Virus record (IMG/VR): IMGVR_UViG_3300033518_000151
Strand: one strand, 5' to 3'
DNA: 38,285 nt
Source of the DNA: a virus
Shown one piece after another: positions 4,341 to 38,285 of this stretch. Position numbers and translations under genes: made by a program. The notes under the pieces were generated by a model. That model saw only the letters and a program-made list of their open reading frames with translations. It had not been told where the DNA came from and searched no databases. Position 1 is the first letter of the stretch, and every line of letters begins with the position of its first letter.

Positions 4341-4460
4341 TCCACAGGTGTATGATTGAAGAAGCAATACTTTTAATATATAATAAAACACGTGGAAGAG
4401 TTTTGTCCCTCATCCATATTGCTTATACTTAAAATCTCACAGTTTTAACTATAGAGAACG

Positions 4461-4488
4461 AGCACCCTTAAAAGGTGCTTTTTCTTTT
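4461..4488 (+). terminator. Rho-independent terminator.
   Basis: agcacc / ggtgct stem with a 7-nt loop, followed by tttttctttt. Confidence 0.6.
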
Positions 4489-12085: not shown

Positions 12086-12127
12086 CTAAAATTCAAACCA
12101 GAGAATCTCAAACAATCTTGTAAAAAA

Positions 12128-15707: not shown

Positions 15708-16025
15708 ATGGATGATGATAAAATTTTAGCAAGGGGAGGTGATGAGACAGACATCAGTAATTACTCAAAGCAGAATGGAGCTGATCTAACTGAAGGTGAT
15801 GTTTGGAATGATGTAAAAAGAATGTCTAAGATTAAGAGAGCTAAGAATGAAGAAAGCAGCTTAAAAATTTTAGATGAAAAAGGTATAGGATATACAATTC
15901 TCAATCTTGAGTGTAGACACTATAGGGTGTGTAGCTTTGATTTCTGGCCATCTACTGGAAAATTTTACAATCAGAAAACAGGAGAGAAAGGGAGAGGGGT
16001 TTTTAATTTAATAAAACTGTTGTAA
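15708..16025 (+). CDS. Hypothetical protein.
   Basis: 105-aa ORF. Confidence 0.55.
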   Translation: MDDDKILARGGDETDISNYSKQNGADLTEGDVWNDVKRMSKIKRAKNEESSLKILDEKGIGYTILNLECRHYRVCSFDFWPSTGKFYNQKTGEKGRGVFNLIKLL

Positions 16026-16067
16026 TTCACTTGTGTTATTTTTCTCTAGTGAGATACTTGAAATAGA

Positions 16068-16181
16068 GATGGTGTATTTATAGGGGGAAGGTAGAGAGTT
16101 CGATTCTCTTCAGGCTGTGTTAAGTCATGGGCTGTAGCTCAATGGTAGAGCATCCCTATAAGTACATCATCAATATTTTTT
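16068..16181 (+). ncRNA. Circularly permuted tRNA-like RNA (YrlA / Y-RNA-like architecture) with a built-in terminator.
   Basis: Hand-folded. Terminal stem 16068-16081 / 16158-16171 (14 bp, 2 G-U). AG bulge (16082-16083). Anticodon-stem equivalent 16084-16088 / 16153-16157. 5-nt variable loop 16089-16093. T-arm 16094-16098 / 16106-16110 with loop TTCGATT. Acceptor-like stem 16111-16119 / 16126-16134 (9 bp, one G-G mismatch) capped by hexaloop ttaagt. U8-A9 equivalents at 16135-16136. D-arm gctc/gagc with loop aatggta. A26 equivalent at 16152. A T6 run (16176-16181) follows the stem. Confidence 0.7.
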
Positions 16182-16194
16182 AAAGGAGGAAGCT

Positions 16195-16386
16195 ATGCAG
16201 TCAGTTGATAAAACTGTAGAACGACTGGTTGCACTCATCAAGCAAACAGTTCCTAAAGCCGAGATGGATGGACACGCTTGGTATGACGTAACCGACCAAG
16301 GACTAGAAGCAGAAGTCAAATTGCTTCGCTTGAAAGGTGCGTTAGCTGAGCATCCACTCGTTTCAACTTTGATTCGTTTTAACTAG
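16195..16386 (+). CDS. Hypothetical 63-aa protein on a compositionally atypical cassette.
   Basis: It has the only strong SD I noticed (aaggagg at 16183-16189, 5 nt before the ATG). It looks visibly GC-richer, with CGA/CTG/GCC/GAC/CGC codons that are rare elsewhere in the window. Confidence 0.6.
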   Translation: MQSVDKTVERLVALIKQTVPKAEMDGHAWYDVTDQGLEAEVKLLRLKGALAEHPLVSTLIRFN

Positions 16387-16430
16387 GAAGGGGGTGATTC
16401 AATCTTGGCAGATCGGAAATAGACGGTCAG

Positions 16431-16469
16431 GAAGTTATTAAGCAATCCTTAATAACTTCTTTCTTTTTT
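16431..16469 (+). terminator. Strong rho-independent terminator.
   Basis: Perfect 12-bp stem gaagttattaag/cttaataacttc, 5-nt loop, then tttcttttttt. The stem-loop contains the TAAGCAAT box (16439-16446). Confidence 0.8.
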
Positions 16470-16479
16470 AATACTCAGA

Positions 16480-16488
16480 ATGTTATAA
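16480..16488 (+). promoter_or_regulatory. Extended -10 promoter (TGtTATAAT).
   Basis: tgttataat lies 18 nt upstream of the ATG at 16507. Confidence 0.45.
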
Positions 16489-16506
16489 TTATAGAGTCAA
16501 AACAAC

Positions 16507-16605
16507 ATGCGCTGCACTCAATGTCATAAACAGAGAAAGACTAAGAAAGGTCTGTGCAAAACATGTCGTCAAGGCAGTTATGAAATCACAATACAAGAAA
16601 TCTAG
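16507..16605 (+). CDS. Zinc-ribbon micro-protein (32 aa).
   Basis: Hand-translated MRCTQCHKQRKTKKGLCKTCRQGSYEITIQEI (CxxC-N10-CxxC). Confidence 0.4.
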   Translation: MRCTQCHKQRKTKKGLCKTCRQGSYEITIQEI

Positions 16606-38187: not shown

Positions 38188-38285
38188 TCGTGGTATCATA
38201 TAATATATGTCAACAAGAACTTTTTTCCTAAATTCAAACACTACTCAATATGGTGAAGAAGAATTAAACGCAGTTCAGAAATTTC
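38145..38285. repeat. Terminal direct repeat, right copy (identical to 1-141).
   Basis: Exact 141-nt identity with the window start. The partial ORF starting at 38207 duplicates the start of the gene at 63. Confidence 0.95.

Follow-up and report, generated by a model that had tools for sequence, protein, structure and literature searches.

The subject of this analysis is a small-gene cassette lying around position 16400 of a phage-like genome from the IMG/VR collection (virus record IMGVR_UViG_3300033518_000151; 38,285 nucleotides (nt), referred to below as the window). The cassette consists of a gene for a 63-amino-acid (aa) protein, a Shine-Dalgarno (SD) site in front of it and, between its stop codon and a predicted terminator, a box complementary to the 3' tail of 16S ribosomal RNA (rRNA) followed by a covarying hairpin. 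This box-hairpin pair is the most unusual feature of the region and was missed by an initial annotation made from the letters of the DNA. We put at about one half the probability that the cassette forms an autonomous unit around a small gene and that its 3' box captures ribosomes through the 16S tail. The unit moves among uncultured aquatic and microbial-mat phages whose genes are otherwise devoid of SD sites. Both the SD site of the gene and the 3' element have been conserved while synonymous sites became saturated.

The 16S-tail box and the hairpins behind it

The calculated pairing of the box with a generic 16S tail, from which the tail of the host may differ, amounts to -26.0 kcal/mol and is the best on the whole plus strand of the window (next best -19.5, mean -4.0, standard deviation 2.7); it is far stronger than the pairing of the gene's own SD. 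Comparison of 15 related loci, labelled here by L numbers, showed that in 13 of them the box is the best complement of the generic tail on both strands, with 14-16 pairs and energies of -22 to -29 kcal/mol. All close relatives share the sequence (G)AAAGG(A)GGUGAUC between the stop codon and the terminator, and every deviation of the window from a perfect complement of the tail is wobble-compatible.

The position of the box is equally constant. It is always found at the end of the last cistron, at most ~20 nt away from the final stop codon in each of the 13 cassette loci that carry it. In bicistronic and tricistronic variants of the cassette it is absent between the cistrons and overlaps the final codons or the stop of the last one. 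The remote homologue L055 retains the box in the same arrangement. As for the added cistrons themselves, three loci carry, behind the 63-aa gene, a translationally coupled gene for a 51-aa zinc-ribbon protein (YCPHCG..ADTTGYKT..; L007:4199-4351, L012:4208-4357 and L013:4204-4356), and L012 has a further 33-codon Trp-rich frame (~4365-4470) as the third cistron. This zinc-ribbon second open reading frame (ORF2) has no homologue in the window.

Two hairpins can form downstream of the stop codon, one by pairing of the linker AUCUUG back onto the box (hairpin 1) and one separate from it (hairpin 2; Table 1). Hairpin 2 covaries. In the seven type-1 copies all cells of its stem are paired, with compensatory changes in three of the five pairs, a score reached by none of 500 shuffles, and controls slid along the alignment paired at 26-46% only. 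It is present in all 13 box-bearing loci. These tests used a hand-checked alignment of the type-1 copies; RNAalifold run on a MAFFT alignment of all variants, in which the hairpins are misaligned, gave hairpin 1 only. A second subtype (type 2; L002, L006, L009 and L015) has AUCUCC in place of AUCUUG. The search of Rfam 15 yielded nothing significant over 16384-16470.

Table 1. Features of the cassette and its borders (window coordinates)
Feature	Position	Strand	Basis or remark
Extended -10-like box TGAGATACT, presumed start of the cassette transcription unit	16050-16058	+	consensus match
YrlA/Y-RNA-like RNA with tRNA-like module, 19-bp basal stem and U-run (16176-16181)	16069-16181	+	Rfam, fold
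SD site AAGGAGG	16183-16189	+	5-nt spacer to ATG at 16195; strongest of 59 gene starts
Gene for 63-aa protein of an undescribed phage family, small alpha/beta domain	16195-16386	+	homologues, selection, AlphaFold2
3' box AGGAAGGGGGUGAUUC, overlapping the stop codon	16385-16400	+	16 consecutive pairs (G-U wobbles counted) to the generic 16S 3' tail GGAUCACCUCCUUUCU
Linker AUCUUG, able to pair back onto the box (hairpin 1)	16402-16407	+	invariant in 7 type-1 loci
Hairpin 2, GAUCG-GAAAUAGA-CGGUC, GAAnAGA-type loop	16411-16428	+	covariation
Predicted intrinsic terminator: 14-pair AT-rich stem, CAAUC loop, U-tract	16429-16469	+	pattern and fold
Extended -10 box TGTTATAAT belonging to the following transcription unit; borders the cassette downstream	16481-16489	+	consensus

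The linker contains a UUG, and the box might accordingly be taken for a very strong but ordinary ribosome-binding site, serving coupled translation or a restart at this UUG, with the peptide or its translation controlling the terminator in the style of leader-peptide attenuation. The UUG stands 9-11 nt past the GGAGG core in all type-1 copies and in all copies of the lysis-cassette type described below. In the window it opens a frame of five codons (16405-16422) that stops 7 nt before the terminator stem, where a ribosome would cover the foot of the stem; moreover, a normal SD joins the 63-aa frame (ORF63) to the zinc-ribbon ORF2 in the bicistronic variants. We nevertheless regard this explanation as unlikely. 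The UUG frames of the different loci range from 5 to 38 codons, are unconserved and are shifted and broken by changes in loop length; the type-2 copies, with their AUCUCC, have no start codon at this place; and a complementarity of 14-16 nt is far beyond the needs of an initiation site. A second protein gene after the box was also considered and rejected, as the GTG- or UUG-started frames found there are unconserved and the frame shifts between loci. Because the frames downstream of the box are unconserved or lacking, the conservation of the 3' element must lie at the RNA level.

Judging from its sequence signature, the box-hairpin element is wider than the 63-aa gene family. A pattern search of IMG/VR with the box and linker returned more than 116 places, mostly by chance. 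In 11 other phage contigs, however, the match is preceded by GG and followed, right after the linker, by a hairpin with a GAA(n)AGA loop, neither of which was required by the pattern. Two of them (L126 and L084) show the cassette layout with a small zinc-ribbon gene, in the order gene, box, hairpin, terminator, TGGTATACT. L126 also encodes a transfer-messenger RNA (2030-2421), with the atypical tag peptide AKASIPSPYAHELGLKNTVLA, ~400 nt downstream of the element. Nine of the 11 contigs come from phages of 45-57% guanine-cytosine (GC) content, in which the motif extends into a longer conserved stretch between endolysin/Rz/Rz1 and terS/terL. This lysis-cassette form reads GGAGGUGAUC..AUCUUG, then the GAAnAGA-loop hairpin and then GAAGUG..CUGUGAAGCGUGGC, and is located in L153:440-600, L082, L110, L116, L134, L141, L162 and L165. 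In GenBank it is found in KC460990.1 (27107-27172; L173:2501-2566) and AP014629.1 (41755-41819), and ~51 GenBank phages of Erwinia, Salmonella, Klebsiella, Edwardsiella, Serratia and other hosts match it at ~80% identity; nearly all of these stretches are unannotated. In Serratia phage Eta the gene after Rz ends in a stop codon, and the motif begins 1 nt past it. Rfam 15 contains no family over the related motif in these other phages.

The wider distribution bears on a further interpretation, in which the box and hairpin 2 constitute a site for a protein or factor unrelated to the ribosome, either an operator through which the 63-aa protein regulates its own expression or a nut-like (boxA/boxB-like) antiterminator site for late genes. 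The layout recalls that of lambda pR-cro-nutR-tR1, in which a regulator gene of small size is followed by an RNA site and then by a terminator, and the element is placed just before terS/terL in L001 and L003 and after the lysis genes in other phages. The loop of hairpin 2 (GAAnAGA) is conserved while the stem covaries, as would be the case for a recognised loop, and the protein has a weak winged-helix resemblance. On the other hand, since the element also occurs without the 63-aa gene, it cannot be solely the operator of that protein; AUCUUG is a poor match to boxA, no N-like protein was identified, and such a site would leave unexplained both the exact complementarity to the 16S tail and the wobble-compatible substitutions. 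We consider it quite unlikely.

The SD-led gene and its probable transcription unit

The SD of the 63-aa gene pairs with the anti-SD of 16S rRNA at -11.7 kcal/mol, while the next best of the 59 gene starts reaches -6.1 and the median is +0.4. Neither AGGAG nor GGAGG occurs at -18..-4 in any of the 50 other genes of at least 80 aa in the window, so the initial annotation was right in assigning the sole strong SD of an otherwise SD-less genome to this gene. At the other starts (49 genes) G accounts for 2-6% at -8..-4, the context is A-rich and T stands at -1 in 78%. The depletion of G indicates that the phage actively avoids SD-like sequence upstream of its starts. This start-context signature is unusual and might help to identify the host. 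The other genes in all 15 loci likewise have essentially no SD sites. AAGGAG(G), by contrast, precedes the 63-aa gene throughout the relatives in spite of the saturation of synonymous sites, and the SD is thus a conserved trait of this gene.

The ORF is a real gene under purifying selection: across 12 loci the proportion of synonymous differences (pS) is 0.79, which is saturated, versus 0.19 for nonsynonymous ones (pN). A search of 5.8 billion proteins returned 20 homologues of 63-66 aa and 64-86% identity, all of them metagenomic, and a profile search of 1.8 billion representatives added ~10 remote members of the same size with the core DG..WYD....E.K.LR..G...HP...L.RF. A tblastn search of 50,697 GenBank phage records gave no homologue, though a remote member had one marginal match there, and 185,579 genomes of bacteria and archaea were likewise searched in vain; the IMG/VR search with the protein gave a single locus. 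The absence of matches in Pfam, PHROG, NCBIfam and PDB sequence searches agrees with the initial annotation, which did not recognise its family. The protein had also been predicted to be helical, which did not hold, as the AlphaFold2 model built from the family alignment (predicted local distance difference test, pLDDT, 89) has the element order alpha-beta-beta-alpha-beta-beta. All best matches in fold searches are of the winged-helix type, with Z 4.0-4.8, which is no better than background, and the order of secondary structure elements in the model differs from that of the canonical winged helix. Foldseek gave no match for the model at E <= 0.001, and the ESM Atlas feature search returned unnamed viral clusters only (score 0.83, within noise). 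The family is new, with a confident predicted fold; possible binding partners of the protein are nucleic acid, the ribosome, and a target in defence or regulation. An anti-defence or toxin-antitoxin role, as suggested in the initial annotation, is also conceivable. Between flanks of 95-99% identity, the middle of the gene (window 16232-16345) falls below 80% at the same length in relatives from two further samples; the patch looks like a local mosaic or a fast-evolving segment.

In its composition the ORF departs from the rest of the window, though modestly. Its GC content of 44.3% (genome 36.2%) corresponds to z 1.9 and puts it in the top 3.5% of 192-nt windows, several structural-gene stretches of the capsid region being equally GC-rich, and its synonymous-codon score (z -3.1) is in the lowest 1% of 62-codon windows. 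The higher GC and atypical codons noted at first sight are thus confirmed at this modest level. The excess of GC over the flanks recurs in all 15 loci (+0.8 to +8.8 points, mean +5).

Morons are autonomous promoter-gene-terminator units of lambdoid and other phages, a concept of Hendrix and colleagues, and the initial annotation described the cassette as a horizontally acquired moron. The comparison of gene order across relatives that it had proposed showed varied neighbourhoods: depending on the contig, the gene follows RusA, HNH, helicase or unknown small genes and precedes terS/terL, a convergent lysozyme gene or further small genes. The recurrence of the same gene with its own SD and terminator in these differing neighbourhoods of phage contigs supports the first part of the description, that of a candidate autonomous, mobile, moron-like transcription unit. 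The second part, read as a recent foreign origin, was not supported. Since all 15 loci lie in SD-less phages and the ORF is GC-richer than its flanks in each, the family has kept both the SD and the GC excess, and neither marks a recent import.

Transcription of the cassette presumably starts at its own promoter, as an extended -10-like consensus is found in nine loci at a consistent distance. TGnGATACT or TGnTAyACT is located 39-65 nt before the ATG in seven related loci, at -145 in the window and at -178 in L001, and the extra length of the leader in the latter two corresponds to a Y-like stem-loop between the promoter-like box and the SD. In the window this insertion is a YrlA-like RNA, matching Rfam RF02553 at 16069-16176 with 40.9 bits (E 1.5e-7), below the gathering score of 69, and folding at -45.5 kcal/mol (z -6.7). 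At the gathering threshold Rfam had no match anywhere in the window, and ARAGORN found no transfer RNA (tRNA). The U-run of the RNA ends 5 nt before the SD, in agreement with the earlier observation that the ORF is bracketed by the U-run of a tRNA-like RNA. With the sole conserved promoter-like box upstream of the RNA and the U-run this close to the SD, the ORF of the window would be transcribed only through the noncoding RNA; the co-transcription suggested earlier gains support from the position of that box. A simpler form of the stem seems to exist in the leader of the related phage L001, where the stem-loop at 2854-2926 has a near-identical basal stem topped by a plain hairpin, with neither the tRNA-like module nor the U-run.

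It had also been suggested that the protein might be a partner or adaptor of the tRNA-like RNA. Combined with a recent arrival of the cassette as a foreign moron from a GC-richer, SD-using donor, this forms an alternative account of the whole unit, to which the higher GC and the atypical codons would lend themselves. It is also favoured by the placement of RNA and ORF under one promoter-like box in the window and L001, by the near identity of the basal stem in these two although the synonymous sites of their ORFs are saturated (pS 1.0), and by the joint retention of RNA and ORF in close relatives of 95-99% identity from other samples. Yet the Y-like stem stands beside the 63-aa gene in only 2 of 15 loci, and its absence from the other 13 means that the protein does not depend on the YrlA-like RNA; Rfam detected no YrlA in 11 related loci, L001 being the only one to share the stem. 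No Ro/TROVE domain was seen among 30 window proteins scanned, a set that did not cover every ORF. The partnership thus finds no support, and the import account as a whole, faced in addition with a GC excess at every locus, with SD-less phages at all 15 and with the lack of a homologue in the bacterial and archaeal genomes searched, appears to us very unlikely.

At the other end of the unit, the terminator assigned by pattern and fold has 12 of its 14 pairs in consecutive Watson-Crick order, followed by UCUUUUUU. The perfect 12-bp stem with a U-tract claimed in the initial annotation is indeed present, but the terminator is not uniquely the strongest of the genome: its energy of -13.4 to -13.9 kcal/mol compares with -13.9 at 2948 and -15.5 at 12120. 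A terminator-like hairpin occurs at the same place in every related locus, with a different sequence each time. The word TAAGCAAT, said to be shared with early leaders, is found at 16439-16446 as described and is enriched genome-wide (11 found versus 3 expected); it is not conserved in the terminators of the relatives, and one close relative has lost a letter of it by a 1-nt deletion. For these reasons TAAGCAAT was not supported as a functional link to the early leaders.

Past the terminator stands TGTTATAAT; the consensus TGnTATAMT has eight matches in the window as a whole, all on the plus strand, and TGnTATACT follows the cassette in L001, L003, L007, L009, L011 and L013. The first ORF after the terminator and TGTTATAAT of the window (16507-16605) is a 32-aa frame of the CxxC...CxxC zinc-ribbon type, with no homology to the ORF2 of the relatives.

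Genome setting and the possible action of the box

The window is a phage-like genome of 38.3 kb and 36.2% GC with every plausible gene on the plus strand. A first block encodes RecT, a YqaJ-type exonuclease, SSB, helicase, NinG, cytosine methylase and HNH; it is followed by a series of very small genes and then by terS, terL, a portal-MuF fusion and the structural genes. Positions 1-62, including the start of the first gene, recur at 38188-38285. This repeat of the first ~60 nt at the end indicates that the genome is probably complete, either circularly closed or terminally redundant. The phage is apparently lytic, no integrase being seen among the 30 proteins scanned. A DNA search of GenBank phages with the cassette region and 25 kb of the window gave no match. 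Public runs containing the phage come from microbial mats, aquatic and fresh water, and wastewater; one run labelled RNA-Seq (marked probably DNA) yielded contigs over 15935-16576 only, which are uninformative on level, ends and strand. Hints as to the host are mixed. The best cultured-phage match of the major capsid protein is to Flavobacterium phages at 37% identity, with both capsid and TerL matches remote, and the relatives of SSB are taxonomically mixed. The promoter-like boxes of the phage are of the TGnTATAAT type, on the plus strand only, and the Bacteroidia promoter motif TAnnTTTG is not enriched in the window, which together argue against a Bacteroidia host.

We propose that SD/anti-SD pairing, avoided elsewhere in the phage, is the basis on which the unit operates. 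A ribosome finishing the last cistron would melt hairpin 1 and thereby expose the box beside its own 16S tail, and the exposed box would capture the 30S subunit by a helix of 14-16 bp with that tail. The most likely outcome would be a ribosome held at the 3' end of the short message, where it would lend the message stability or be more readily used again on the same messenger RNA (mRNA). A ribosome held there would also occlude hairpin 2 and the foot of the terminator, so that read-through into the following unit would become coupled to translation of the cassette. Alternatively, capture might result in remodelling of the ribosome. In a host with SD-blind ribosomes only an extended helix could engage the tail, by analogy with rpsU in Bacteroidia.

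Several observations weigh against ribosome capture. The remote homologues L054 and L056 are without the box. A one-base bulge interrupts the middle of the box in many loci, which makes the match to the tail less neat and would suit a protein-binding or RNA-RNA site as well. Hairpin 1 is kept in 100% of copies with zero compensatory change. In the lysis-cassette group the motif follows the preceding ORF at a distance of 0 to ~120 nt, and a link to termination is for this reason not universal. Finally, the 16S tail of the host and its use of SD are assumed, and SD-blind ribosomes are documented only in Bacteroidia, a host group against which the TGnTATAAT-type boxes and the lack of TAnnTTTG enrichment argue.

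A bolder version of ribosome capture would see in the element an undescribed class of phage RNA that grips the ribosome by its 14-16-bp 16S-tail helix right after termination and unlocks or reprograms SD-blind ribosomes, for example by displacement of bS21 or masking of the anti-SD, favouring SD-less or leaderless messages or switching on the SD-led gene of the cassette itself; to this we would give little credence. Least probable of all is that the transcript acts as a decoy for the 16S tail, an abundant and stable RNA with one or two anti-SD-binding sites that titrates or remodels host ribosomes and stops SD-dependent host translation, or displaces bS21, while SD-less and leaderless phage messages continue: the box is the top tail complement in each phage, the other phage genes shun G-rich SD-like sequence before their starts, the unit has a promoter-like box, a structured 3' end and a terminator, and a 13-bp helix ejects bS21 in Flavobacterium johnsoniae (PMC13000457), but the stoichiometry would require thousands of copies per cell, the SD-lessness of a phage usually mirrors that of its host and would leave little to shut off, the cassette's own ORF requires the anti-SD, and phages of Enterobacterales, which use SD in the ordinary way, have the motif as well, presumably in a late transcript.

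Comparison with known systems

A close bacterial parallel is rpsU, the gene of bS21. In F. johnsoniae only rpsU has an SD, and a 13-bp SD/anti-SD helix is needed to engage the sequestered 16S tail and displaces bS21; the extended SD of rpsU in Bacteroidia forms helices of 9-13 bp and -14 to -21 kcal/mol (PMC9976891, PMC13000457, PMC13000453). The cassette resembles rpsU in being a single unit with very long complementarity to the 16S tail in an otherwise SD-less genome. Its helix, as calculated for a generic tail from which that of the host may differ, is longer (14-16 bp and -22 to -29 kcal/mol versus 9-13 bp). The rpsU site lies upstream of the start codon and drives a conserved protein, whereas the box of the cassette lies at or after the stop codon, has no conserved frame behind it and is phage-borne. 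In addition, the cassette gene's own SD is of ordinary length and, in contrast to the setting of rpsU, the promoter-like boxes of the phage are not Bacteroidia-like.

The leader RNA shares with YrlA and other bacterial Y RNAs (RF02553) a Y-RNA-like basal stem and a tRNA-like module. It differs in its score (40.9 bits versus the gathering score of 69), in the lack of Ro/Rsr among the scanned proteins and in its association with the 63-aa gene in 2 of 15 loci only. The cassette as a whole is comparable with morons, being a small gene with its own promoter-like box and terminator, varied neighbourhoods and a composition unlike that of its flanks. Morons are usually thought to be recent imports expressed from prophages. 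Unlike them, the cassette resides in apparently lytic phages, its odd composition and SD are family-wide, and it carries a conserved structured 3' element.

An SD-like sequence that is not used for initiation also has a precedent in STAB-SD (GAAAGGAGG), which is thought to bind the 3' end of 16S rRNA and protect the message; it reportedly lies in the 5' leader and guards against 5'-to-3' decay in Bacillota. In Bacillus thuringiensis STAB-SD stabilises the cryIIIA mRNA (reviewed in PMC4113751). The box of the cassette is likewise SD-like and probably non-initiating, but it is longer and situated in the 3' region. Strong rRNA-mRNA pairing near the ends of coding regions has been proposed to slow ribosomes and aid termination; the trend is genome-wide, weak and statistical, and concerns the final 20 nucleotides of coding regions (preprint 10.1101/2020.07.24.220731). 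In contrast to this trend, the cassette element is discrete and strongly conserved, spans 14-16 nt and is accompanied by a covarying hairpin.

A functional analogy may come from eukaryotic viruses. The termination upstream ribosome-binding sites (TURBS) of caliciviruses and influenza B are stop-adjacent mRNA motifs complementary to small-subunit rRNA that tether the post-termination subunit; local pairing can hide the motif, and translation then frees it (PMC5972666). Similarly, the box of the cassette is complementary to rRNA beside a stop codon, and hairpin 1 would mask it. TURBS, however, are eukaryotic, pair with helix 26 of 18S rRNA, lie upstream of the stop codon and serve a conserved downstream ORF, while the cassette has no conserved ORF for a restart.

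Pairing between SD and anti-SD is normally discussed as a means to start translation. The recent work on Bacteroidia demonstrates that a very long SD helix can also alter the composition of the ribosome (PMC9976891, PMC13000457, PMC13000453). In the phages described here, an otherwise SD-less family keeps one SD-led gene together with a longer tail-complementary box that ends the message of this gene. Should ribosomes indeed bind to the box, the rRNA-tethering elements of eukaryotic viruses would have a counterpart in the bacterial world, and the handling of ribosomes by phages in hosts without SD use would become accessible to study. The idea of ribosome capture is open to bench testing now, because cultured phages of Serratia, Edwardsiella, Salmonella, Klebsiella and Erwinia carry a related motif that has gone unannotated. 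Set beside these known systems, the cassette suggests that ribosomes may be retained on a message in a manner not recognised before.

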